DNA of 39,456 nucleotides from a virus: the UHGV virus genome UHGV-0205415; one strand, written 5' to 3'. The position numbers and the translations under genes are program-made. Numbering within the stretch: the first letter of the stretch is position 1; each line of letters starts with the position of its first letter. This document shows, piece by piece, positions 4,060-34,529 of this stretch. The notes beneath the pieces were generated by a model. It had not been told where the DNA came from, ran no database searches, and was given only the letters and a program-made list of their open reading frames with translations.

Positions 4060-6057
4060 TTATATTGCAGATATTATAAAACATAATAATTCTTCATATC
4101 TTATTCCATATCGCTCACCCCCTTCTATAGATATTCTGCGTTCTCCAGTATCATATTCAATTAATTTTTCATCACCGGATTCTTCATCAAAAATTATCTT
4201 TTTAGCAATTACTGGTTCGTATTCAGTTTCCCATTTATCATAGCAAAAAAGACCATAGTCGTTTGCATCAAGCCCTTCTTCAGCAAATGCTTTATATACA
4301 TCTTGGGCAATAATGCCAAAATGTAATCTAGCATTTTCTCCTTTTTCAATTACTGAATCTATAAATCTAAAACAACAAACCAAACCCTTTATTTTATATG
4401 CAACACGTCTCTCTGCATCAGTAATCGGTCTTTTATCAGTCTTAACTCGACCATCCGATGTGTTAATCGTTGAAGTGCCAGCAAATATTGTATTCCACCT
4501 TCTGGATGCTGAACCGCAATTTCTAGCGTTATCTGTTGCTGGTTGTACCGACGCATCAAAACGAGCATAATTATTCTCATCAGAAACAGGTCCCATCAAT
4601 CCACTCAAAAAAGGGAGCCCGCTCTGATTAGCAATTATTAATTGGTTGTCACCTGAAGAAATTGCCGAACCGGCATTGGTTCCGATAAATATATTACCTG
4701 TTCCAGAGCTTAACGATCTACCAGATCTATATCCAAGCATTACATTGTTACTTGCCGAACCAATAGAATTAAGTGAGTCGGCTCCTACTGCGACATTATT
4801 CATCCCTGTAGATGTGCCTGTATAAGGGTTATCTATAGAAGAAATCCCTCTTCCTGATCCGCTACCAATATATGTATTGTTATCTCCATTTGTAATCTCC
4901 CTTCCGGATGCATTGCCTATAAATGTGTTATTATTTAGAATGTTATAAGACAACCTTTTGCCTGATTGGTCTGTAACAATTCCAGCTCGCATTCCAGCCG
5001 CTCGACCTATTGCAACATTACCACTACCAGTATGAAGTTGTTGTAATGCACTTGATCCTACTGCAACATTAAAATTTCCTTCTTTATTTTCATTTAGGGC
5101 ATCGCGCCCAATTCCAATTATGTTACTAGCTGTGGTTGATTTTTTGCACGCATTCACACCAATTGCTACAATCTCAGTGCCAGTGCATGGCGATGTATCT
5201 GTGAGATCGTCTTGAAGGGTATCACCTGATAATACACCTGTCCCAATTGCTGTAATGTTATTGCCCGTGCTAATGTTTCTTCCTGCACTTGGTCCAATCG
5301 CAACAACTTGCCCGGATATATCATTTCCATTATATATCTTGCCAGCATCAAAACCAAAAAAAACATTTCCAATTGTCTGAGCAGGATTTGCAAATGGAAT
5401 AGGTTCGTCTCCTTTACTTTGTATTATTTTACCAGGGCCATAAAATTTTCCATTAATATAGTTCTCAATTAAATAAGTACCTTGTGGAACATAAACACCG
5501 TCAGGTGAAACTGAAGATGCATAGGAAAATATATGTGTTGCGTCAATATTGCCATTAACAATGTCGCTAACATCTTCATGTTTTACAAAATCAAGAATAC
5601 TAATATTCTCTGCATTTTTATCATGCTGTGTTCGTTTTGTAGAATTAATTAAAGGTTGTTTTACTGTGATTAATGAATCACCAAGCCCATCATCTGAACT
5701 TAAAAGTTCTTGCCTTAACTGATCCGGGTCATACTTCAGCACATTAGGAAAATAAAACTGCTGCGCACCATATGCATCATAAACAGCCATAGAATGGCCT
5801 TGCACAGTTACGAACTTGGCAATCTGTCCGTTATATACCGGATATCCGGCAGCGTTAATGATTATTGGTTGCGAAACAGGAATGTGAGAACCGTCTTCGT
5901 TCTCTACATAAACCTGAATCTGGTTTTCAGGATTTACCGGGTCAGTGTCAATTTTACCGATATAAATTTTGCCATTGGCTACGGCTTTAAAAGAACGCGC
6001 CATAGTGAAGAGTTGCGAAGGCATACTCACTACAACATTGGCTGTAATGTCTGTCAT
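4060..6057 (-). CDS. tailspike protein: P22 gp9-like head-binding N-terminus, repeat-rich central domain, C-terminal S74-type intramolecular chaperone domain
   Basis: N-terminus [11 protein letters not shown]...[11 protein letters not shown]...VTVQGHSMA...LKYDPDQ matches P22 tailspike head-binding domain (recalled); C-terminus resembles autoproteolytic chaperone of endosialidase/tail fibers. Confidence 0.85.
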
Positions 6058-6189
6058 TTAATTTGCTCCAGATACAAGGAATGGCCGCAGCATGGCTACG
6101 GTTGGTATTTGTTGCATACCGAAACGGTACGATTGTTGATTTGTACAGTAGGTTTTACGATGCCATTCCACCCATTTGGTGAGGCATTG

Positions 6190-6447
6190 ATGATGTACAG
6201 CAAATACGATGAGGCGCAGTTCCACTTGAGGCTTACGCACGAGTTGCACGCTAAGATTAAGCAGCGTGCAAAAATGAATAACAGGTCTATCAATTCCGAA
6301 ATTGTGGCTACGATGGAAGAATCACTCTCCAAACCATCACCTGTAAGCGGGTATCGTGATGAAGAAGAGAGGCTGGCCTCATTAATCTCGGAACGAGTAA
6401 AAGAAGTTGCGGCTGATATCCTTAGAAAAGAAAAAACCCGCGATTAA
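6190..6447 (+). CDS. mnt: Mnt-like ribbon-helix-helix repressor
   Basis: Only the C-terminal 86 codons of track ORF 5794..6447; NNRSINSEIV and SKPSPVSGYR motifs match P22 Mnt (recalled); GGTGAGG RBS before ATG. Confidence 0.75.
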   Translation: MMYSKYDEAQFHLRLTHELHAKIKQRAKMNNRSINSEIVATMEESLSKPSPVSGYRDEEERLASLISERVKEVAADILRKEKTRD

Positions 6448-6461: not shown

Positions 6462-6683
6462 TTAGTTATCAAAAAGTCCGTACGTTTCTTCTTCTTCAGG
6501 TGTAAGGGGAAGAATCTCTACTCTATCTATAGATACCTTTTCAATGTACCCATGAGGTCTACTTAAAATTAAAGCTCTCTCATGCCACAGAACTCCAAGA
6601 ATGTGATACCTCCCAGCATCGCCTTTTACCCTGGCTCTTCCTTTGATTCTTGGCGGCATAATGCCATATTTTTTCTTTGCCAT
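6462..6683 (-). CDS. hypothetical basic 73-aa protein, translationally coupled to upstream gene
   Basis: ATG overlaps upstream stop (TAATG); no family recognised. Confidence 0.4.
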   Translation of the reverse strand: MAKKKYGIMPPRIKGRARVKGDAGRYHILGVLWHERALILSRPHGYIEKVSIDRVEILPLTPEEEETYGLFDN

Positions 6684-7411
6684 TATGCAACATTACTCCC
6701 ATGAATCAGGTGTTGTAGTGCTTTAACACCTTCCGCATTGTAGCGGAATGCTTCCACCTGTTTGCTGGAATGCGCAGATTTATCCAGGAAGAACTTACCG
6801 TACTGCTCAGTTTTGAGGTTGTTTGCGTTAGCAATGCGACCAATCTTGTTGGCCGTTACTCCAAGCTGCTCTGCAACCTCCCCTGCTGAGTAGTAATGCT
6901 CTTCTATTGCTGGAAGAGGTATTGCATTAAAACCAACGATCGGGTTTATTATGCTTGCTGCCGCAGTCTGCTTTGCTTCCGGCGCAAGATTTGGCATCAA
7001 ATCGAACAGATTGGTAACAGCTTCAACCGTCATTTTCAATGTTCGCGCCTGGCGATACTCAACAAGTCCACTCGACGATTTACCGCTTTTAATGTGCGCT
7101 TCTTGCATACTTTCAAGTTGGTCTACAAGTGAGCGGCGAACAGCTTTAGATTCACGAGCAGCCACTCGAAGGGCTTGCTTAATTGACATAACAACTTTTT
7201 CAGAAGTTGTCTTGTTTGATTTTTGAACTACGAAAATTTCGTAGTGCTCACCTTCAAGTTCATCCTTAATGCGTGCAATAAAGTCGTTATTGCGGACTTC
7301 TTTTTCCCCGCACTGTCTACGAGCATGATTGACCATCTCTAACAGGTACTGGCTATCAATGGTTTTATCCGTGACAACGGATCCGATGTTTGCTACATTC
7401 TTAAAAGTCAT
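6683..7411 (-). CDS. Rha/antirepressor-family regulatory protein (tentative)
   Basis: ORF 6683..7462; ATG at 7411 with AAGGA RBS; domain resemblance to phage Rha/KilA-C antirepressors (recalled, moderate). Confidence 0.5.
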   Translation of the reverse strand: MTFKNVANIGSVVTDKTIDSQYLLEMVNHARRQCGEKEVRNNDFIARIKDELEGEHYEIFVVQKSNKTTSEKVVMSIKQALRVAARESKAVRRSLVDQLESMQEAHIKSGKSSSGLVEYRQARTLKMTVEAVTNLFDLMPNLAPEAKQTAAASIINPIVGFNAIPLPAIEEHYYSAGEVAEQLGVTANKIGRIANANNLKTEQYGKFFLDKSAHSSKQVEAFRYNAEGVKALQHLIHGSNVA

Positions 7412-7449
7412 TAGGCATTCCTTATGTGGTAGTAAGGGTGTGACATAGG

Positions 7450-7480
7450 CCGCCAGCAGCACACTGGCGGTTTTCTTTTT
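7450..7480 (+). terminator. plus-strand intrinsic terminator-like hairpin inside the minus-strand antirepressor operon
   Basis: CCGCCAG-cagcaca-CTGGCGG followed by TTTTCTTTTT. Confidence 0.3.
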
Positions 7481-7499
7481 GCGCCGTCCGGCGCACCAA

Positions 7500-8138
7500 T
7501 CAATGAATCCATTCCTCGCCGCGAAGTTTTGCCAGCATTGGCTGAGCGTTCTTTACGACAAAATTGTTGGTATCAAGATTCTTCATTTCACGAAGAAGTG
7601 ATTTCTTGGTTTCTTCTGACATGTAGCGAGTCTCATATGCAATATCGTAAATCCTTCCAGAAAGCTCAGAACCAATTTGCTTCATTCCTGGGTAGATGTG
7701 TTTGCACATTTGTTGACTCTTCTCCATCCACAATTGTAAGTAGCAGAGATTAACCAGCTCTTCGTCAGTAAACTGTTTTGCAATCGGTGAGCATTCTGCC
7801 TGCCGATCCAAAATATCCAGCACCCAGCGGCGGAACTCTTTGGCCTTGGGCGTAGAAGCAAACATCGCCACCAAGTGAGCGCCTCGGAGCGAGTAAACTC
7901 TGACCGATTTGTTACGTAAGCTATTGTTTATCCCGTTGACCTTCATATTGAGGGTCAATGACATTGAGTCGGAAAACTCGTCAGCATTACGGGCATAAAT
8001 TTGGCTGATGGCATCAGTTTTTTTATAGCCGAGAGCCTTAGCTAGTTCGGTGGAGGTAAACCAGATAGACCCACCCTCTGTTACAGGGTTAAAGGTGAAT
8101 CCTTGGAAGTTATAATCTGATTTTGCTACAATGTTCAT
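7500..8138 (-). CDS. ant: antirepressor with BRO-N-like domain
   Basis: ORF 7500..8222; ATG at 8138 with AAGGAAA RBS; BRO-N-like segment FTSTELAKALGY...VRVYSLRGAHLVAMF. Confidence 0.7.
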   Translation of the reverse strand: MNIVAKSDYNFQGFTFNPVTEGGSIWFTSTELAKALGYKKTDAISQIYARNADEFSDSMSLTLNMKVNGINNSLRNKSVRVYSLRGAHLVAMFASTPKAKEFRRWVLDILDRQAECSPIAKQFTDEELVNLCYLQLWMEKSQQMCKHIYPGMKQIGSELSGRIYDIAYETRYMSEETKKSLLREMKNLDTNNFVVKNAQPMLAKLRGEEWIH

Positions 8139-8214
8139 GTTAGTTTCCTTGCATACGGTTACTGACATAGAGGCCCGGTTTGTGTTCGCGCACTGCCGGG
8201 CTTCACTATTTTTA
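8123..8214 (+). ncRNA. candidate sar-like antisense RNA covering the ant ribosome-binding site
   Basis: Perfect TATAAT at 8111..8116 on plus strand inside ant 5' end; GCCCGG...CCGGGC hairpin plus T-run in arc-ant intergenic region; analogy to P22 sar RNA. Confidence 0.3.
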
Positions 8215-8385
8215 CTGGGCATTAACTCTTTCCTCTCTCAGGCTTTTAGCCAGTCGCTGCACAATCGCAGAGTTGATAGAAATTCCATCCATTTCAGCAA
8301 CACGTCTAATCTCCTCCTTCATTCGCGCTGGCAAACGAAGCTGGAAACTTTGACTTTTACGACCTGTGTAAAGCACATCTTTCAT
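8212..8385 (-). CDS. arc: Arc-like ribbon-helix-helix repressor
   Basis: ORF 8212..8412; ATG at 8385 with GGAGG RBS; FQLRLPARMKEEIRRVAE...ISINSAIVQRL resembles P22 Arc. Confidence 0.7.
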   Translation of the reverse strand: MKDVLYTGRKSQSFQLRLPARMKEEIRRVAEMDGISINSAIVQRLAKSLREERVNAQ

Positions 8386-8413
8386 AAGTAATCCCCTCCA
8401 CAATGATACCAAC

Positions 8414-8455
8414 TTGGTTCTAGAACCAATTTAACACCATTTATTTTGATGTCAA
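8414..8455 (-). promoter_or_regulatory. Pant-like promoter (-35 TTGACA, 16-nt spacer, -10 TAAATT) overlapped by 16-bp perfect palindrome TTGGTTCTAGAACCAA (operator candidate)
   Basis: Read directly from sequence; sits in divergent region between arc and the second mnt-like gene. Confidence 0.5.
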
Positions 8456-8497
8456 GTTGGTGCTATTGTTTAGCGAACATCTTTACGTTGAGGTCAT

Positions 8498-25484: not shown

Positions 25485-26108
25485 CTAACGTGTGACCGCA
25501 TTCAAAATGTTGTCTGCGATTGACTCTTCTTTGTGGCATTGCACCACCAGAGCGTCATACAGCGGCTTAACAGTGCGTGACCAGGTGGGTTGAGTAAGGT
25601 TTGGGATTAGCATCGTTACAGCGCGATATGCGGCGCTTGCTGGCATTCTTGAATAGCCGACTCCTTTGCATCTTCCGCACTCTTTCTCGACAACTCTCCC
25701 CCACTGCTCCGTTTTGGCTATATCAACCGCACGGCCTGTACCGTGGCAATCTCTGCATCTTGCCCCCGGCGTCGCGGCACTACGGCAATAATCCGCATAA
25801 GCGAATGTTGCGAGAACTTGCAGTACCTTTGCCTTAGTATTTCCTTCAAGCTTTGCCACACCACGGTATTTCCCCGATACCTTGTGTGCAAATTGCATCA
25901 GATAGTTGATAGCCTTTTGTTTGTCGTTCTGGCTGAGTTCGTGCTTACCACAGAATGCAGCCATTCCGAATCCGGCCTGTGATTGCGCCATCCCCATAGC
26001 AGCCATCACATCAGTACCGGAAAGAGAGTCAGAAGCCGTGGCCCGTGGTGAGTCGCTCATCATCGGGCTTTTTGGCGAATGAAATTTAGCTACGCTTTCG
26101 AGTCTCAT
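25485..26108 (-). CDS. Q: late gene antiterminator Q
   Basis: 207-aa protein essentially identical to lambda Q as recalled. Confidence 0.95.
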   Translation of the reverse strand: MRLESVAKFHSPKSPMMSDSPRATASDSLSGTDVMAAMGMAQSQAGFGMAAFCGKHELSQNDKQKAINYLMQFAHKVSGKYRGVAKLEGNTKAKVLQVLATFAYADYCRSAATPGARCRDCHGTGRAVDIAKTEQWGRVVEKECGRCKGVGYSRMPASAAYRAVTMLIPNLTQPTWSRTVKPLYDALVVQCHKEESIADNILNAVTR

Positions 26109-26293
26109 CGTCTTCCTCTCTTGCCCTGTTTGACCATCAGGACGCCGTTAACTATTACGTGACGCTCGCCTTTGCTGTCTCGGTTGTACTTGAGCACTGT
26201 TCCTCTTGCGCAGGAAAGCATCCTCGCCACTTCGGTCTGATTGCCTCGTGTCTGGATAAGAAGCTCTGGTATCGTTTGAATTGTGGCGTTCAT
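26105..26293 (-). CDS. ninH: NinH-like protein
   Basis: TIPELLIQTRGNQTEVARMLSCARGTV resembles lambda NinH. Confidence 0.8.
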   Translation of the reverse strand: MNATIQTIPELLIQTRGNQTEVARMLSCARGTVLKYNRDSKGERHVIVNGVLMVKQGKRGRR

Positions 26294-26652
26294 ACGTTCT
26301 CCAGTTCGGTGATTTTTATTCCAAGCCGTCCGCCTGGTACTTTCACACCACGAATTACGCGAATGTCATCGAATTGCTCGTCGTCTTCCGCAAATCAGGC
26401 GTGGATAAGGGAGTCGAGTAAACCTTTCAGGATGTTATCGAGGTCGCGGCGGCGGGAGTCTGGAACGTCTGCGATGACTTTGATGCGGAGTCGTGATTTG
26501 GTGAAAATGTCTAACTTAAGTTGGCGGATGATTTGCTGAACGTCTTTTCGGTATTTCTGGCCTTTATCGCTGATGTAGTATTGGCTTCCCCGTCTTCGCC
26601 AGTAGGTATTCACCGACGGCGGGTATGGAAGCACAAACTGATATTCGTTCAT
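26290..26652 (-). pseudogene. rusA: rusA-like Holliday junction resolvase interrupted by in-frame TGA at 26395..26397
   Basis: 85-aa ORF matches RusA N-terminal part (DSRRRDLDN motif); the same frame continues after TGA for 33 codons resembling the RusA C-terminus and ends overlapping ninH start. Confidence 0.7.
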
Positions 26653-26939
26653 GGCTTAATCTTCCCCTCCTTCAGTAGTATCGCCTGCGTCCTGATCACG
26701 CCTTCGAGGTGGTAAAGTCTGGCGTCTTTGTTGTCGAGAATCCTTGTGCGTCGGTCGATCTCCGCGTGGCAGTCACTACAAGCCCATGCACCGATCAGGT
26801 CGTCAGGCTTCATTCCCGTTCCGCAAATTCCAGCCATCCGGTAATGTGCCAGAACTGTAGTTTCAGGGTTGCCATTGCATACGCCGTAAATACGTACCTG
26901 GCATTCTCTGCCGCGCGCTTCTTTGCGTAGGTTAGCCAT
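26649..26939 (-). CDS. DUF1364/YbcO-like protein
   Basis: ECQVRIYGVCNGNPETTVLAHYR...CSDCH pattern as in DLP12 YbcO (recalled). Confidence 0.65.
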   Translation of the reverse strand: MANLRKEARGRECQVRIYGVCNGNPETTVLAHYRMAGICGTGMKPDDLIGAWACSDCHAEIDRRTRILDNKDARLYHLEGVIRTQAILLKEGKIKP

Positions 26940-27664
26940 TAAGCAGCCTCCCCTGTTACTTTCAGCATTCCGTTATCGAGCAGCTTTCTGGTCAGCCACT
27001 GTTGACCACGCCCGGTGATTTTTGTAGTGAACGATATCTGTATTCCGTGATTTGTGTTGACCGCTGTTTCTTTCACTGTGAAATAGCCGCGATCCATATA
27101 TTCCTGCATTGGCACATTGCGCCGGGAACCTGAAGCAATAAGGATTTTGTGATCGCGCATCCACGCAAACAGTTTGTTTTGACCAATTCCAACAACCTTT
27201 GCAAAGTTTCCAATCAAAATTCCACTGGCCTCGCCAACGCGATCGGCAAACTCAACTTTAGGTGCGGCAATTGCGAGCTGGTTTTCCAGTTGCATTTTCT
27301 GCTCAGCAAGATCAGCAGCAAGGCGCAACGCTTCCGGTAGCGTTTTGGGGATATTAACCGCAGCTTCTTCAAGCTCTCGCCAACGGTCAACAAGACGAGC
27401 GGTGAACTCTGGCGACAACTGGGCAACGACAATAATGCTGTCTCGCTTTCCTTGTTCGCCCTCGAAGACGTAGAAATCACGCCTCCCGGTAATAACACAT
27501 AAATCATTGATTATGTTAGTGTGCTGCAATGCAGGAGGCTTGATAACGCCACGTTTCACCAATCTATCTATGGATACTTTTACATTGCTATGGCGGCTTT
27601 CTACCAACTCAGCGATTTCAATGCTTGTCATTTTGATGGCATTGCCATTTATTAACTCATTCAT
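26939..27664 (-). CDS. Rha/KilA-C type antirepressor-like regulatory protein
   Basis: N-terminal Rha-like region and C-terminal KilA-C-like region (recalled). Confidence 0.6.
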   Translation of the reverse strand: MNELINGNAIKMTSIEIAELVESRHSNVKVSIDRLVKRGVIKPPALQHTNIINDLCVITGRRDFYVFEGEQGKRDSIIVVAQLSPEFTARLVDRWRELEEAAVNIPKTLPEALRLAADLAEQKMQLENQLAIAAPKVEFADRVGEASGILIGNFAKVVGIGQNKLFAWMRDHKILIASGSRRNVPMQEYMDRGYFTVKETAVNTNHGIQISFTTKITGRGQQWLTRKLLDNGMLKVTGEAA

Positions 27665-27833
27665 CGTCTTCTTCCTCGTACATTGAGCTATTCGGATCGC
27701 TCATCAGTTCTGCGCAGCAGTGCTCACACACGTGAACTTCCAGCACATGCAGCTTCTGGCCGCAGTTAGCGCACGTTAAAGCCCGCTCGACGCTTTCTTT
27801 CTGGTATTGAAGGGATTGGGATGGGCTAAGCAT
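27657..27833 (-). CDS. ninF: NinF-like protein
   Basis: MLSPSQSLQYQKESVERALTCANCGQKLHVLEVHVCEHCC nearly identical to lambda NinF (recalled); track ORF 27657..27890 trimmed. Confidence 0.8.
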   Translation of the reverse strand: MLSPSQSLQYQKESVERALTCANCGQKLHVLEVHVCEHCCAELMSDPNSSMYEEEDDE

Positions 27834-28227
27834 GGCTTTCACCATTAAAAAGTCGCTTGTAAGCATCAATGTCTCGTTTTGCTTCACCAAGCTTTCGTCT
27901 TAATTCCATGTTTTCTGATTCAAGCTTTTCCATGTCTTGTTGGTATCGATCGCGGTGTTCTTTCCATGCTTTTTGATACGCCTTCATGTATGTCATGTTG
28001 GCCTTTCTCTTTGCCTGACGAACTGCGTGGTGGTTTTTCACAAACCAGTCAGGGTCGTTAAATGCTGCTCTGGCGCATGTATACCAATAATTTGTTGCCT
28101 CCCTGTTTAGCCAATAAATACTGATAAATGGCAACCGGATAGACACCATTTTTCGTTGTGACTCTTTCTCGCCAAACATGTGGCCTTTTTTGATGCTAAG
28201 TCCAAATCCAGGTTGAATTAAAAGCAT
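27826..28227 (-). CDS. hypothetical protein inserted between ninE and ninF, AT-rich 5' half, coiled-coil C-terminus
   Basis: ORF 27826..28269; ATG at 28227 after AGGAAA; no family recognised. Confidence 0.45.
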   Translation of the reverse strand: MLLIQPGFGLSIKKGHMFGEKESQRKMVSIRLPFISIYWLNREATNYWYTCARAAFNDPDWFVKNHHAVRQAKRKANMTYMKAYQKAWKEHRDRYQQDMEKLESENMELRRKLGEAKRDIDAYKRLFNGESHA

Positions 28228-28229
28228 TG

Positions 28230-28406
28230 TCATTTCCTCGCACGATATCTTAGCCACCGGATATCCCACAGGTGAGCTGTGTAATTGAAGGTTTTTACGT
28301 CAGATTCTTTTGGGGTTGGCTTGCGTTTATTTCTGGAGCGTTTCGTTGGAAGGTATTTGCAGTTTTCGCAGATGATGTCGGTGATACTTCGTCGCTGTCG
28401 TCTCAT
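28230..28406 (-). CDS. ninE: NinE-like protein (58 aa, below ORF-track size cutoff)
   Basis: Manual translation [30 protein letters not shown]... matches lambda NinE (recalled); ATGA overlap with ninB stop. Confidence 0.8.
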
Positions 28407-28813
28407 TCGTACCTCCTGTCGGTAAATCTGACACCCTGACCAATAGCCCAGGCTGTTGTGTACTCGATCAGACTTGCCATGCGCTTCACGCTCATCTGCG
28501 CGCTGCTTTCGCGAATGTTGACGTATTCGCCTTCAAGCCCGGGCAAAACATCAGCTTCCAGGTTTGTTGCCACTGCATGACCGCTAATCAACAAAACCTT
28601 CCATTGTTCCGGTTTTAACCATTTGCCGCACCATTGAACCTGACGAGCGATATCCGCCAGCATCACGTGAAATTTTGCGTTCTGGTCAAGGTTGCGCTTG
28701 TAGTCAGTAATGCGGATGGTGACTGGCTTGTCTTTATCGAGTGGTGTTGCGAGGATGGCATTTATTGCGGCTTGCTGTTGTTGCTTAGTTCGGAGGAAGA
28801 TTGTTTGCTTCAC
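28403..28813 (-). CDS. ninB: NinB-like recombination protein
   Basis: [31 protein letters not shown] resembles lambda NinB pattern. Confidence 0.7.
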
Positions 28814-28824
28814 TGAATACTCCT

Positions 28825-29016
28825 TTATTTTTTATGCCTGTAACCCCATTCTTCCAGCAACCTTGCGGCGTACCACCCAAGAAACAAAGGAAAGAACATT
28901 ACAATGAGATATTCCCCGCCACGGTCAATGTTCGAAATTGACCAGATTACGATGTAACCAGTGCAGGACAGGAATATTACAAACCCCAAAAAGCTACTTC
29001 GTCGACTCATGCTCAC
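28825..29016 (-). CDS. small membrane protein (two hydrophobic segments)
   Basis: ORF track; hydrophobicity only. Confidence 0.35.
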   Translation of the reverse strand: MSMSRRSSFLGFVIFLSCTGYIVIWSISNIDRGGEYLIVMFFPLFLGWYAARLLEEWGYRHKK

Positions 29017-29297
29017 TCCTTCACTTTGATTCCAGCGGCGCGGATGGATTCATCGATATCGTCACGGTCGTACACAGCAATAGCATCACTGACAAACCAT
29101 ACAGGCAACTCAATTTCAATAGCTGCTCGCGATGCCTGCCACGTTTGCCAGTGGCCTTGAACATCGTCCATCACGTATTGACCACCAATATCACCACTGC
29201 CAATTTCATGGTGATTTTCAGGGTAACGGATAAGGTCTGATGATTCGCCTCCACGTCGCAACCAACTTTCTTCAAACTGCTTTCTTGATTCGTCCAT
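29013..29297 (-). CDS. hypothetical acidic protein
   Basis: ORF track; overlaps neighbours by 4 nt. Confidence 0.4.
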   Translation of the reverse strand: MDESRKQFEESWLRRGGESSDLIRYPENHHEIGSGDIGGQYVMDDVQGHWQTWQASRAAIEIELPVWFVSDAIAVYDRDDIDESIRAAGIKVKE

Positions 29298-29314
29298 CGA
29301 TACTTACCCTCAGT

Positions 29315-29521
29315 TCAACTCACAAAACGCCACGCCATTTTTGCTACAGCGACAGGCATAACACCGATAATCACCCAGACAAATGCAGCGCCAAACAACG
29401 TATACCATGGTTCTTTACCGTCATTCACAAGACGAATGTAGCTATGCAGAACAATAAAAAACGTCAGAAGAATCCATCCAACGCCAACGAATTTGAGTGC
29501 GACGAGCATAAACTCAGCCAC
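29315..29521 (-). CDS. small membrane protein (two hydrophobic segments)
   Basis: ORF track; GTG start; hydrophobicity. Confidence 0.4.
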   Translation of the reverse strand: MAEFMLVALKFVGVGWILLTFFIVLHSYIRLVNDGKEPWYTLFGAAFVWVIIGVMPVAVAKMAWRFVS

Positions 29522-29535
29522 GATTCACCATCCCC

Positions 29536-29568
29536 CAAATAAAAAGGCCTGCGATTACCAGCAGGCCT
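29536..29568 (-). terminator. intrinsic terminator downstream of helicase gene (tR2-like position)
   Basis: Perfect 8-bp stem AGGCCTGC/GCAGGCCT followed on minus strand by TTTTTATTT. Confidence 0.6.
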
Positions 29569-29596: not shown

Positions 29597-32062
29597 TCAG
29601 AATCCTCCTTTCTTCTTGGACTGCGGTTCCTCGCGTTCACGGCGGCGCATTTCAGCAGACTGTTGGTCTGTGTCATAAATAGCGCCATTTGCCTGAATGC
29701 AATACACCGTGCCGGTATTGCCATGACGATTGAGACGAAGGATTAGTTCGGTTTCACCAGGTGGAACACTGTCATCAAAAGCACCTTCACGATGGATCCC
29801 CACCCAATAATCGCAATCCTGTTCAATCTGCCCTGTATCTCGTGAGTCACTTGGTAATGGGCGTTTATTGGTTCGGCTTTCCAGTGCGCGGTTAAGCTGC
29901 GTCAGAAGCACAACAACGCAATCAAGCTCTTTGGCAAGGTTCTTCAGTCCTTTGGTGATCATGCCGTAAGCAAGGTCGTTGCGATCGGCCTTCTCAGCGG
30001 TCATTAGTGTCAGGTAATCGACCAGAATCATGCCAACACATCCTTTTTCTCGCTTGATTCGACGGCTTTCGCTAACGATTTGAGCCAGAGATAATCCCGG
30101 CGTGTCGTCGATGTAAAGCAGGTCGATTTCACTCAAACGATTAGCTGTTTCGATCGCCCTGTTGAAGTCACCATCGTAATCACCCTGATAGCCGTCATCA
30201 GCGTCATTTGTCGCCGGAAGGTAAAAAATATTCGGGTTAACACCAGACTTCTGCCCTACCAGTTTTTCCAGTATCTGATCACCTGGCATTTCAAGGCTGA
30301 ACATCAGAGCGGGCTTTTTCTCATGCACTGCGCAGTTGATTGCCATCTGGCTGTATAGCGTGGTGTTGTGGGTTAGAATGTATCCGTCAGTTGCATACAA
30401 ATGTCTCTCGTGGGATACCATGATGCAAATGCACTCTTCACGTCCAATATACTCAACCGACGTGATAACAGGCGCACTTGTTTTGATGCGTTTTGCAGTG
30501 AATTTTTGCTTCAGGCGTGGAGATTTTATGTGTGATAGAACCTCATCAGGCAACCTGATTGCGCAAATATGGGCATCCATACCTTTGCGCATTTCTCCCT
30601 TATAACTGAATTTCGGCTCCTGTTTGGTTGTCATACGACACACGCCACCAAGAGAATGCACCAGCCGCTTTACACCATCTGACAGGAACTTGCTTGCCGA
30701 GCTAAAGCGCAGGGCATTATTTCCTTCAACCCAACCATCGGTTTCAAGTAATCCGCATAGAACATCAATACGAGTTTGCTTATCAGCAGAAAAAATAATA
30801 TCCGGGATAATTTTAATCTCTGACATCCGGCCGTAGATACCAAGCCGTTGCATAACCCGCGTAAGAGATAATTTGCGGCTAAACTTGTGAGATAGGGAGT
30901 AATCGCAGCCAGAAACATGCCTGACTTCAATATCGTCACCCACTTCAGATCTTACTCGCTCAATGATGTATGGTTCCGTCATGCTGATTCGTGGCGTACC
31001 TGCAAGATTTCCATCGCCAAGTAACGCACCTAACAGCCATGGGCTAATCCCTAAATCAACAGGCAATCCGAAGTCACCGCTAATACCAGGAACATGAATG
31101 CGGCTTTGATAGCGAACGCATTCCATCATGTCCCGTAGGCGGCAGGTGTCTACAACATCAACGCCACCGGTAATACGGTTACTATGAATTTCCCACAAAT
31201 GATCATCCGCGCAATCAACGGTTCTTCCGTCAGAGAACGTAACTCGGTAAATATCTCGCTCCCCTTGAGGAAAAACTCCAGACACGAATGATGGTTGTCC
31301 ATCCACTGATGCTAGGGAATCTCCAACACATACGTCACGAAATGTTGTCCATGAACCATCAGCAAGCAAAATGCGTGAATTAAGCGGTTGCGCTTTCCCC
31401 ATCTTAGGGCGAGCGCCAATGACAAACAGAGAGCCTTTCACCAGACCTTTCGGTGACAGCATCCTGTCCAGCGATGGGATCCCTGTGCTCATTCCTCGTT
31501 GTTCGCCTGACGGGTCAAATCGCTTCTCAAGGTCGCTAACCCAGTCTTCCATGACCTCACCAAATGAGCGAAGGCCGCGACGCGATCCGGTTTTTGCATG
31601 GTCTGTCAGTTGCGTGAAAATCGCCTGAATAGCTTCGTACTTCTGCGTTGCAGTCATTCCGTTGCGGGAATAGAGCAATTCCGTCGCTTCAGTCATGCGG
31701 TTGATGGCGTAGCGTTCCATTGCGGTTTCACGAACCTGCATTGCATAGGCAACGATGTTTGCTGCGCTTGGCGTGTTCTTTGCGATCTCAGCGATATAAG
31801 CAAAACCGCCAACAGACGCCGTTAACGATTTACGCTCCAGTTCATCGAAAAGCGTCAGGCCATCTACTGGCTTTTGCTCCCGGTGCATTCTGGTTATTTC
31901 TTCGAAAAGGATTTTGTGTGGTCGGCAGTAAAATGAATCAGGCTTCAGCATCGCCAGAACTTTCTGGACGCGCTCACTGCTGTCATCATCCAGAAGCAAT
32001 CCACCAATCACCGCCTGCTCTGCCTCGATGCTATGGGGCGGCGCATAAAAATTATCGGTCAT
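29597..32062 (-). CDS. replicative DnaB-family helicase interrupted by an intein
   Basis: ORF 29597..32077; ATG at 32062 after GAGGGTG; DnaB motifs GARPKMGK ... TTLYSQMAINCAV ... LMFSLEMP flank a 343-aa insertion. Confidence 0.85.
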   Translation of the reverse strand: MTDNFYAPPHSIEAEQAVIGGLLLDDDSSERVQKVLAMLKPDSFYCRPHKILFEEITRMHREQKPVDGLTLFDELERKSLTASVGGFAYIAEIAKNTPSAANIVAYAMQVRETAMERYAINRMTEATELLYSRNGMTATQKYEAIQAIFTQLTDHAKTGSRRGLRSFGEVMEDWVSDLEKRFDPSGEQRGMSTGIPSLDRMLSPKGLVKGSLFVIGARPKMGKAQPLNSRILLADGSWTTFRDVCVGDSLASVDGQPSFVSGVFPQGERDIYRVTFSDGRTVDCADDHLWEIHSNRITGGVDVVDTCRLRDMMECVRYQSRIHVPGISGDFGLPVDLGISPWLLGALLGDGNLAGTPRISMTEPYIIERVRSEVGDDIEVRHVSGCDYSLSHKFSRKLSLTRVMQRLGIYGRMSEIKIIPDIIFSADKQTRIDVLCGLLETDGWVEGNNALRFSSASKFLSDGVKRLVHSLGGVCRMTTKQEPKFSYKGEMRKGMDAHICAIRLPDEVLSHIKSPRLKQKFTAKRIKTSAPVITSVEYIGREECICIMVSHERHLYATDGYILTHNTTLYSQMAINCAVHEKKPALMFSLEMPGDQILEKLVGQKSGVNPNIFYLPATNDADDGYQGDYDGDFNRAIETANRLSEIDLLYIDDTPGLSLAQIVSESRRIKREKGCVGMILVDYLTLMTAEKADRNDLAYGMITKGLKNLAKELDCVVVLLTQLNRALESRTNKRPLPSDSRDTGQIEQDCDYWVGIHREGAFDDSVPPGETELILRLNRHGNTGTVYCIQANGAIYDTDQQSAEMRRREREEPQSKKKGGF
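30365..31393 (-). mobile_element. intein with LAGLIDADG homing endonuclease motifs inserted in helicase Walker A (P-loop)
   Basis: Insertion between GK and TT of P-loop; ends in THN with Thr as +1 residue; LLGALLGDGN and LCGLLETDGW motifs; begins with Ala (no Cys/Ser nucleophile). Confidence 0.75.
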
Positions 32063-32951
32063 CGTGTTCACCCTCACGAACTTTCAGGTAGGTATTATCG
32101 TTAAGCAGGAAATCAAATCCCTTTTTGTGCCAGACGGTTCCGCGCTGATGGTTTGGGCGCTCTTCGAACATCCATCGGCAATTTTCGCCTACGTAGCTCA
32201 AATAATTTCTCCAGTCCTGCATCGTGAACCCATGCCCGTCAAGCTGGCGGGTTATCACTCCGGCTTTGCGCCAGAACGTTCGGATCTGGTTTTTACGCTT
32301 GTCATTCAGTGCGCGGATTTTTGGCGCTTCAGGAAGGATTTCGTGGTAAGCATCGACAACATCCTGACAGCTAACGGAAGGTTTTTTCTTGTCAGACTTT
32401 TTGTCTGCTGCGGTACTCTCTAATACGTCAGTATTAGAGATAATATTATTATATTCTTTATCTGTGGTAATTTGCTGGTAATCTGCTGGTACAGTATTGC
32501 TTGCAGGCATTGGTATTGCTGGCTTTGAGGTGGTAATTTGCTGGTAATCTGCTGGTACAAAATTTGACTGATAATCGTCATATTTCTCTACCGAGAAAAC
32601 TGAGAATTTACCGTGTGAAACCCAGTCAATCATGCCGAGTTTTTTGAACTTTCTAAGCAGGTACTGAACGCGATCTGGTTTGAGTCCTGTTTCAAACGCC
32701 AGAGAGTTTCTACCGCCAAGTAGCTTCCCTCTGCCTACCAGAATTTCTCCTGCGTCAGTCATTACATACTCAGGCGTATGCTTTGCTTTGAGGATTAAGT
32801 GAACCCACAGATGCGCAGCTTCTGCGTCCTTGTAAAACGGCACATCCATAATTTTACGGTGCAGCAAGGCATACCCCTTACCGCTGCTTTGATGCGGTTG
32901 TTGTAGCCTTCTGGCCTCTCTGGCTTCGGCTAGATTAGATATGTTACTCAT
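32052..32951 (-). CDS. replication initiator (O / P22 gp18-like) containing origin iterons
   Basis: Position upstream of helicase; internal DNA iterons encode repeated peptide [10 protein letters not shown]. Confidence 0.6.
32420..32565. repeat. candidate origin of replication: two identical 29-bp repeats (32465..32493, 32531..32559) built from TGCTGGTA-type iterons plus adjacent AT-rich tract
   Basis: Direct repeats and AT-rich stretch 32425..32460 read from sequence. Confidence 0.6.
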
Positions 32952-33812: not shown

Positions 33813-34529
33813 ATGGAAAATAAAAAATCACTGACGACAGAACAGCTGGAAGACGCTAAGCGGCTTAAGGCTTTGTATGAGTCAAAAAAGAAAGAATTGG
33901 GAATAACCCAATACTCAATCGCTGATGAACTGGGTATCACCCAAGGAGCGGTAGGGCATTATCTTAATGGCAGAAATGCGCTAAACGTTGAGGTTGCATC
34001 TGGTTTTGCACGATTGTTGCAAGTCTCAATTGCTGATTTTAGCCAGTCAATTGCTGCCAAGGTTGCAGAACAGGCAGAAAGCCTTAAGAGCGATGCCAAC
34101 GTAAGGTATGCAGGGGAATACAGAGCAGGAAAGAGGTATCCGGTGTTAAGCAGTATCCAGGCTGGCTCGTGGTGTGAAGCATGCGAACCATACACCATTA
34201 AAGACATAGATGTTTGGCTTGAGTCTGACGCGCATATTCAAGGTAATGCGTTCTGGCTTAAAGTGGAAGGTGATTCAATGACGGCACCGGTTGGGTTAAG
34301 CATTCCAGAGGGAACATTCGTTCTTTTCGATACCGGAAGGGAGGCGATCAACGGCAGCTTGGTCATAGCAAAACTTTCTGACTCTAACGAAGCAACATTC
34401 AAGAAGCTGATAATCGACGGTGGAAATAAATACCTCAAGGGACTTAATCCTGCATGGCCTCTCGTGCCAATCAATGGAAACTGCAAGATTATAGGCGTTG
34501 CAATTGAGACAAAACTCAGACTGGTTTGA
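33813..34529 (+). CDS. cI: CI repressor (HTH plus S24 LexA-like autocleavage domain)
   Basis: LTTEQLEDAKRLKALYE N-terminus and C-terminal FWLKVEGDSM...FKKL resemble lambda CI. Confidence 0.9.
   Translation: MENKKSLTTEQLEDAKRLKALYESKKKELGITQYSIADELGITQGAVGHYLNGRNALNVEVASGFARLLQVSIADFSQSIAAKVAEQAESLKSDANVRYAGEYRAGKRYPVLSSIQAGSWCEACEPYTIKDIDVWLESDAHIQGNAFWLKVEGDSMTAPVGLSIPEGTFVLFDTGREAINGSLVIAKLSDSNEATFKKLIIDGGNKYLKGLNPAWPLVPINGNCKIIGVAIETKLRLV

Follow-up and report, generated by a model that had tools for sequence, protein, structure and literature searches.

The nin region of this phage is best explained, with a probability of roughly 0.8, as an ordinary nin region of the HK022/HK97/HK620 type, which carries the gene roi and an exchangeable cassette encoding a protein of 133 amino acids, and which would be transcribed as one delayed-early message. 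The window, by which we mean the whole 39.5-kb stretch of DNA analysed, belongs to a mosaic, P22-like phage or prophage of E. coli. At 94-97% identity, the half that encodes the virion matches CUS-3 and JEP4, and the half with the early genes matches HK620, Kapi1 and mEpX2. Roi, the conserved hypothetical protein of 133 aa and the order of the genes are all known already, from annotated phages such as HK022, HK97, HK620, Gally, HK629 and VT1-Sakai. A preliminary description of the region had singled out a 241-aa regulator of the Rha/KilA-C type and an AT-rich gene inserted between ninE and ninF, and had counted the regulator as a third antirepressor-like protein of the phage. Both open reading frames are located exactly where it had placed them (26939..27664 and 27826..28227, minus strand); their meaning turned out to be somewhat different.

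The nin genes all have minus-strand orientation; in the direction of transcription they are ninB, ninE, the 133-aa gene, ninF, the 241-aa gene, ybcO/DUF1364, rusA, ninH and Q (Table 1). Upstream of them is a gene for a DnaB-like helicase, which contains an intein. A strong tR2-like intrinsic terminator follows the helicase gene, at a place equivalent to that of the tR2 annotated downstream of P in HK620, and three small open reading frames separate it from ninB. At the other end, the Q gene closes the nin region, and the lysis genes come next. The preliminary assignments of the genes that flank the two proteins of interest are confirmed by the Pfam scores, those of NinE, NinF and YbcO all being far above the respective cut-offs. 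The product of ybcO/DUF1364 also matches phrog_131 ("HNH endonuclease"). For ninF, phrog_672 matches residues 20-77 of a longer open reading frame; the ATG, at position 27833, shares the sequence ATGCTTAG with the stop codon of the preceding gene, which it overlaps, and the gene call in Gally is identical. Pfam RusA covers only profile positions 1-93 of 124 in the rusA product. Alignment with Gally, HK97, HK022 and HK629 reveals an in-frame change of GGA to TGA at positions 26395-26397 of this gene. No RNA family of Rfam was found anywhere in the window, and a repeat scan of positions 26900-28300 gave short repeats at chance level only.

Table 1. Features of the nin region, its surroundings and the immI-like locus, with positions in the window
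Feature	Position	Strand	Remarks
DnaB-like helicase	29597-32077	-	upstream of the tR2-like terminator
tR2-like intrinsic terminator	29545..29568	-	8-bp stem with 6 GC pairs, then a T run
ninB (136 aa)	28403..28813	-	Pfam NinB, 181.7 bits
ninE (58 aa)	28230..28406	-	Pfam NinE, 141.6 bits, profile positions 1-58 of 58
133-aa cassette gene	27826..28227	-	phrog_1511, 2.2e-86
ninF (58 aa)	27657..27833	-	Pfam NinF, 3.2e-12
roi (241 aa)	26939..27664	-	238/241 identity to HK022 Roi
IHF-consensus match in roi	27500..27512	-	AATCAATGATTTA; 13-nt consensus, gene nt 153-165
ybcO/DUF1364 (96 aa; hkbD in HK620)	26649..26939	-	Pfam YbcO, 148.1 bits
rusA with nonsense codon	26290..26652	-	85 aa instead of 120
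ninH (62 aa)	26105..26293	-	Pfam Phage_NinH, 85.7 bits
Q-type late antiterminator (207 aa)	25485..26108	-	position and length as Q of Gally, HK97 and HK620
Mnt-like, divergent Arc-domain repressor	8498..8881	+	Pfam Arc, 1.1e-16; phrog_3178, 2.6e-59
Arc-like repressor gene	8212..8412	-	PHROG Arc-like families; upstream of the Ant-type gene
Ant-type antirepressor candidate	7500..8222	-	P22_AR_C, 2.6e-13; Bro-N, 1.5e-10; phrog_245, 9.3e-64
Second protein labelled "anti-repressor"	6683..7462	-	phrog_1726, 3.1e-100, residues 18-259

When this layout is compared with those of known phages, the order ninF-roi-DUF1364-rusA-ninH-Q is the same in HK022, HK97, HK620, Gally and HK629, and the nin regions of HK620, HK97 and Gally have the same genes in the same order at 94-97% DNA identity, from which our phage is set apart by the nonsense codon in rusA. 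HK97 further differs in having a methyltransferase gene between ninB and ninE. In lambda, as had been stated, ninF comes directly after ninE (and ninG, in the lambda annotation, after ninF); in P22, too, ninG follows ninF, and roi-ybcO-rusA occupies the place of ninG in both phages. The layout ninF-roi-ybcO-rusA is the standard alternative to lambda ninG, used in HK022, HK97, HK620, Gally and many Stx phages. The 133-aa gene is absent from HK620, HK97 and HK022, but present in Gally, at 97% identity. The block from ninE to roi, with the 133-aa gene and ninF in between, is found at a coverage of at least 80% in 171 of 5,426 complete E. coli genomes (about 3%).

The genes from ninB to Q follow closely on one another, and start codons overlap with stop codons. 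The ATG of the 133-aa gene is located 2 nt past the ninE stop codon and its own stop codon overlaps the ninF ATG, so that it is translationally coupled on both sides; the start of roi, in turn, overlaps the stop of ninF. No sigma-70 promoter-like site was found among the genes from ninB to Q, and neither promoter-like nor terminator-like sites flank positions 27826-28227. The sole promoter-like site that was found is pR'-like and lies downstream of Q (25442-25414). Because of the packing and the lack of an internal promoter-like site, the nin genes are read as one delayed-early message, which, by the layout and by analogy with the biology of lambda and HK620, would run from pR past the tR2-like terminator.

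The 241-aa protein is, by its sequence, Roi. It is identical to HK022 Roi at 238 of 241 positions, without gaps (the substitutions are G56C, K61R and P162Q), and its identity to Roi of HK97, HK620, Gally and HK629 ranges from 83 to 98%. In HK022, roi is likewise located between ninF and the DUF1364/ybcO gene, the difference being that our phage has the cassette gene upstream of ninF. The position reported earlier, between ninF and the YbcO-like gene, is therefore right, but it is not unusual, since it is the canonical place of roi. The carboxy-terminal part of the protein (residues 127-229) matches Pfam ANT/KilAC (PF03374) with 114.6 bits against a cut-off of 25.3, over profile positions 1-106 of 108. 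Phage_pRha (PF09669) scores 24.6 bits, below its cut-off of 29.9, yet the match, which sits in the N-terminal 100 residues, covers the whole profile (positions 1-91 of 91), and pRha matches are present in all six Roi alleles tested, the best with an E-value of 6.3e-9. With phrog_63 the E-value is 2.8e-93. Roi is thus predicted to consist of two domains, an amino-terminal helix-turn-helix domain of the pRha type and a carboxy-terminal KilAC/ANT domain, and given the two matches the "Rha/KilA-C" label is sound at the domain level; profile searches, which might have assigned the protein to an unrelated family, left that call standing. Roi has hundreds of phage homologues, and Roi-like genes are standard in Stx phages too. 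Within the window, tblastn revealed no paralogues of Roi, its sequence did not match any solved structure, and a single-sequence AF2 model, with a pLDDT of 38.9, was too poor to be of use. BLASTP gave no significant similarity to P22 Rha.

The KilAC/ANT domain is common to Roi, to P1 Ant1/KilA and to the Listeria AriS proteins, with a relationship at the domain level only; the antirepressor activity of Ant1/KilA and the SOS-inhibiting activity of AriS belong to those proteins and are not demonstrated traits of Roi. One reading that follows from this kinship is that Roi is a true antirepressor, which is produced by the early operon, binds and inactivates the HK620-type cI (33813-34529) or the repressors of co-resident prophages, and would be the third of its kind next to the two proteins of the immI-like locus. 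These two were found as described earlier, at 7500-8222 and 6683-7462. The first is an Ant-type candidate preceded by an Arc-like repressor gene, an arrangement that matches the position of the arc-ant pair of P22. The second carries the label "anti-repressor" without matching a Pfam family, and likely starts at Met18 of the listed open reading frame. We consider the antirepressor reading of Roi quite improbable. The domain named after the P1 Ant1/KilA antirepressor family does match Roi strongly, PHROG and RefSeq both label Roi "anti-repressor", and trans-acting antirepressors encoded outside immI are known from Salmonella Gifsy prophages (PMC3121763). These labels, however, have been transferred from domain names, and the similarity of Roi to P22 Ant is not significant (E-value of 0.018 over 37 aa). 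Moreover, in papers that cite Clerget and Boccard (1996, J Bacteriol 178:4077), HK022 Roi, which is 99% identical to ours, is called a DNA-binding protein involved in lytic growth, and binding to a repressor is not reported in those papers.

The position of roi speaks against this reading as well. The immI-like locus (6683-8881) has its own Arc-like and Mnt-like genes; roi, in contrast, does not form a controlled unit of its own. There is no promoter-like site near it, and it lies in the middle of the operon downstream of pR, outside any control of the Arc/Mnt or LexA type. From such a position it would be silent in a lysogen and so could not start induction. Roi can be counted as a third "antirepressor" on account of its annotation labels, and in that sense the preliminary description was correct, but judged from its sequence and position the statement is true only as a domain annotation.

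The second reading suggested by the domain architecture is that Roi resembles AriS, with an amino-terminus that regulates phage genes and a KilAC domain that damps the SOS response of the host, probably via RecA. In AriS-like proteins the SOS-inhibiting activity is contained in the KilAC domain, and the amino-terminal domain alternates between AntA/B, Bro-N and pRha, the combination of pRha with KilAC being the architecture of Roi (PMC9043618). The activity is, however, known only from proteins of Listeria phages, which are about 30-77% identical among themselves; the likeness of Roi to them is one of domain architecture, and the E. coli work contains no link between Roi and SOS. A role of this kind for Roi appears very doubtful to us.

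Under the preferred reading, Roi acts on DNA. The HK022 protein reportedly recognises a site that lies within roi, adjacent to an IHF site. Our roi contains a match to the IHF consensus at gene nucleotides 153-165, as does HK022 roi at the same nucleotides, and three roi alleles with diverged flanking DNA retain a match there. The whole 39.5-kb window contains three such matches, no more than expected by chance, and the codons under the match in roi encode the conserved residues I52, N53 and L55; for these two reasons the match is weak evidence for an IHF site. Roi alleles vary almost only at residues 22-64, from the middle of the helix-turn-helix region onwards, and the codons of this variable segment include the IHF-consensus match. 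By analogy with HK022, the most likely mechanism is that Roi and host IHF form a complex in the 5' part of roi, which would tune passage into, or expression of, the downstream part of the operon towards Q, and with it the timing of lytic growth. A literature search on roi of the nin region, on ninX and on Roi together with IHF returned nothing relevant.

The other gene of interest, the 133-aa gene, is located in a slot with well-defined borders. The interval between ninE and ninF was aligned for the window, Gally, P22, HK97, HK022 and lambda. The window, Gally and P22 have identical junctions on both sides of the cassette: the left junction, GAAATGACAATG, is made up of the ninE stop codon, two bases and an ATG, and the right junction, ATGCTTAGCCCATC..., contains the stop codon of the cassette gene and the start of ninF. 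In P22, the gene between these junctions is ninX, followed by a ninF whose amino-terminus is identical to that in our phage, while lambda, HK97 and HK022 have a short ninE-ninF junction without a cassette. The earlier statement that the 133-aa gene is "inserted" is thus valid relative to lambda, but not relative to P22, where ninX fills the same slot. The two cassette products are different proteins, with no BLASTP alignment between the 133-aa protein and P22 NinX (112 aa) at E-values up to 100. When viral contigs were scanned for the exact left junction, at least 120 loci were listed; among the 91 that could be resolved, 70 are of the NinX type, with many alleles, and 21 of the phrog_1511 type. 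Given this split among the matches listed, the 133-aa gene is one of two common alleles and not a one-off insertion. Some phages carry neither gene. As the alignments indicate, the ninE/ninF boundary is a recombination-prone boundary between mosaic modules, which can be of the NinX type, of the phrog_1511 type, or empty, and the 133-aa gene would be a non-essential cassette that can be exchanged between the conserved junctions.

The 133-aa gene itself is catalogued, as a conserved hypothetical, under phrog_1511, which it matches over the full length, and the boundaries of its gene call agree with those of the Gally orthologue (402 bp). A hypothetical protein of VT1-Sakai (H0039) and CP-933V, which belongs to the same phrog_1511 family and is also encoded next to ninF, is 100% identical to it, although these are Stx-converting lambdoid phages and ours is a P22-like podovirus; the identical protein is also present in other Stx1 phages. 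Intact copies of the gene are found in 58 phage records, adjoining ninF wherever the neighbouring genes are annotated. At 90% identity the family comprises 81 clusters, all from Enterobacteriaceae where an organism is named, and at 50% identity it has 54 representatives among 1.84 billion proteins, the full-length ones being 125-140 aa long. The dN/dS ratio relative to close alleles is about 0.23-0.28, a value based on only 8-11 substitutions. These phage homologues and records, clusters and dN/dS values show that roi and the 133-aa gene are real genes rather than chance open reading frames. The description of the 133-aa gene as AT-rich is accurate in a mild sense only: its GC content of 41.5% is lower than that of the window (46.9%) and of the neighbouring genes (46-51%), but 12% of all 402-bp segments of the window have a GC content as low or lower.

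A rival explanation of the 133-aa gene is that it is a moron, or defence or counter-defence cargo, which arrived from outside and is expressed on its own. Its somewhat lower GC content and its presence or absence between otherwise similar phages would suit such an origin, as would its distant homologues, which occur among accessory genes in contigs of N15/PY54-like prophages, namely genes for Lar-like, Dam, N6_N4 methyltransferase and DinI proteins. Against it, the dip in GC content is within the normal range of the window (12th percentile), no promoter-like or terminator-like site accompanies the gene, its translation is coupled to both neighbours, and with PADLOC a 12-bit coiled-coil match was the only match. 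The gene context of the distant homologues consists only of strings of small early phage genes. We regard independently expressed cargo as rather unlikely; a counter-defence role would still be in keeping with a cassette of the early operon, so that this explanation overlaps with the preferred one.

The 133-aa protein is basic (pI 9.8) and matches no family of Pfam, NCBIfam or PADLOC, the Pfam search giving only sub-threshold coiled-coil noise. In the AF2 model (pLDDT 70), four short strands and a helix of residues 45-57 are followed by a long, confident helix of residues 67-127; the amino-terminal half is of low confidence, with a pLDDT of 50-66. Residues 78-127 follow a heptad pattern in which Asn106 occupies a core position. 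Conserved features of the family are a hydrophobic amino-terminus, the motif AFNDPDWF.NHHAVRQAKRKA and the carboxy-terminal heptad repeat. With Foldseek, the model matched nothing in the PDB and BFVD other than itself and short helices, and the best matches of its sequence among solved structures are generic coiled coils with E-values of about 0.1, headed by C/EBP chains at 0.09-0.15. Membership of the bZIP family was considered and rejected: the N-x7-R-x9-L spacing, counted from N65, misses the heptad core residue, and no Pfam bZIP family is among the matches listed for 20 members of the family.

Most likely, albeit with low confidence, the product of the 133-aa gene is a parallel coiled-coil dimer with a small amino-terminal beta domain and a basic helix that continues into the zipper. 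The protein probably acts early in infection, and might, again with low confidence, do so by binding nucleic acid or a host protein. A bolder reading, which we rate as a long shot, makes a separate proposal for each of the two genes of interest: the 133-aa protein would be a new kind of small regulator or host-takeover factor, bZIP-like without bZIP ancestry, and the specificity of Roi and its site would form one module. As modelled, the basic helix could run straight into the parallel zipper, and the gene could be exchanged as an allele against ninX. If the Roi binding site is also contained in the DNA of the variable segment, protein specificity and site would be inherited together, as a single module.

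For the biology of these phages, the analysis means that the antirepressor label of Roi should not be taken as proof of such an activity. Between ninE and ninF there is a clean slot for a cassette with two alleles, occupied by a gene of the NinX type or of the phrog_1511 type or left empty. Among the early genes of Stx phages, phrog_1511, itself a conserved hypothetical, is widespread.

The gene for the 133-aa protein of family phrog_1511 lies between ninE and ninF as a cassette, and the boundaries of the cassette fall at start and stop codons and are identical to those around the ninX gene of phage P22. The left junction was followed into the 91 resolvable viral contigs among the matches listed, where it leads into a NinX-type gene in at least 70 contigs and into a gene of the phrog_1511 type in at least 21. 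Distant homologues of the 133-aa protein, with identities to it of 30–48%, are encoded by two metagenome contigs, L009 and L010, in cro-Q-RdgC early operons and near genes for Lar-like, Dam, N6_N4 methyltransferase, DinI and HicAB proteins. Similar homologues are present in Yersinia phage PY54.

Coordinates of the features discussed
Feature	Position	Strand	Location or remark
217-aa ORF	5794-6447	+	beside immI-like locus; overlaps tailspike end
73-aa phrog_4977 gene	6462-6683	-	after second 'anti-repressor'
rusA nonsense codon	26395-26397	-	in rusA (26290-26652); single in-frame GGA to TGA
IHF-consensus match	27500-27512	-	inside roi (nt 153-165)
ninE/ninF junctions	27826-27845 and 28220-28245	-	cassette boundaries
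Three small ORFs (68, 94, 63 aa)	28825-29521	-	between tR2-like terminator and ninB
Intein	30365-31393	-	inside DnaB-like helicase gene (29597-32077)
133-aa protein homologue	L009 5001-5399		metagenome contig
133-aa protein homologue	L010 5001-5405		metagenome contig

Gene content between the tR2-like terminator and ninB varies among related phages. Two of the small ORFs found there in the window are assigned to PHROGs of unknown function (phrog_1165 and phrog_343), while one is without a match. The DnaB-like helicase P has 826 amino acids, compared to 478 in phage HK620. An insert of 343 residues splits its P-loop (GARPKMGK|T) precisely at the K223/T224 bond, and on either side of the insert the protein is 99% identical to HK620 P. 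Judged from its sequence, the insert is an intein, because it starts with alanine, ends in His-Asn and weakly matches LAGLIDADG_3. Its closest relatives in the phage collection, the inteins of Stx2 phage P genes, are only 46% identical. The DNA of the intein was found in 18 of 5,426 E. coli genomes; for the eight of these genomes shown, no annotated feature is listed under the match.

Within roi, the IHF-consensus match falls in the DNA coding for the variable Roi residues 22–64, and a match is retained at this position across three divergent roi alleles. RusA is cut to 85 of its 120 amino acids by a stop at a codon that is GGA in phages Gally, HK97, HK022 and HK629; the gene is a pseudogene, or else the stop is a sequencing error. 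Beside the immI-like locus, the 217-aa ORF contains another Arc-domain segment in its carboxy-terminal part, and the immI-like region looks more complex than its counterpart in P22.
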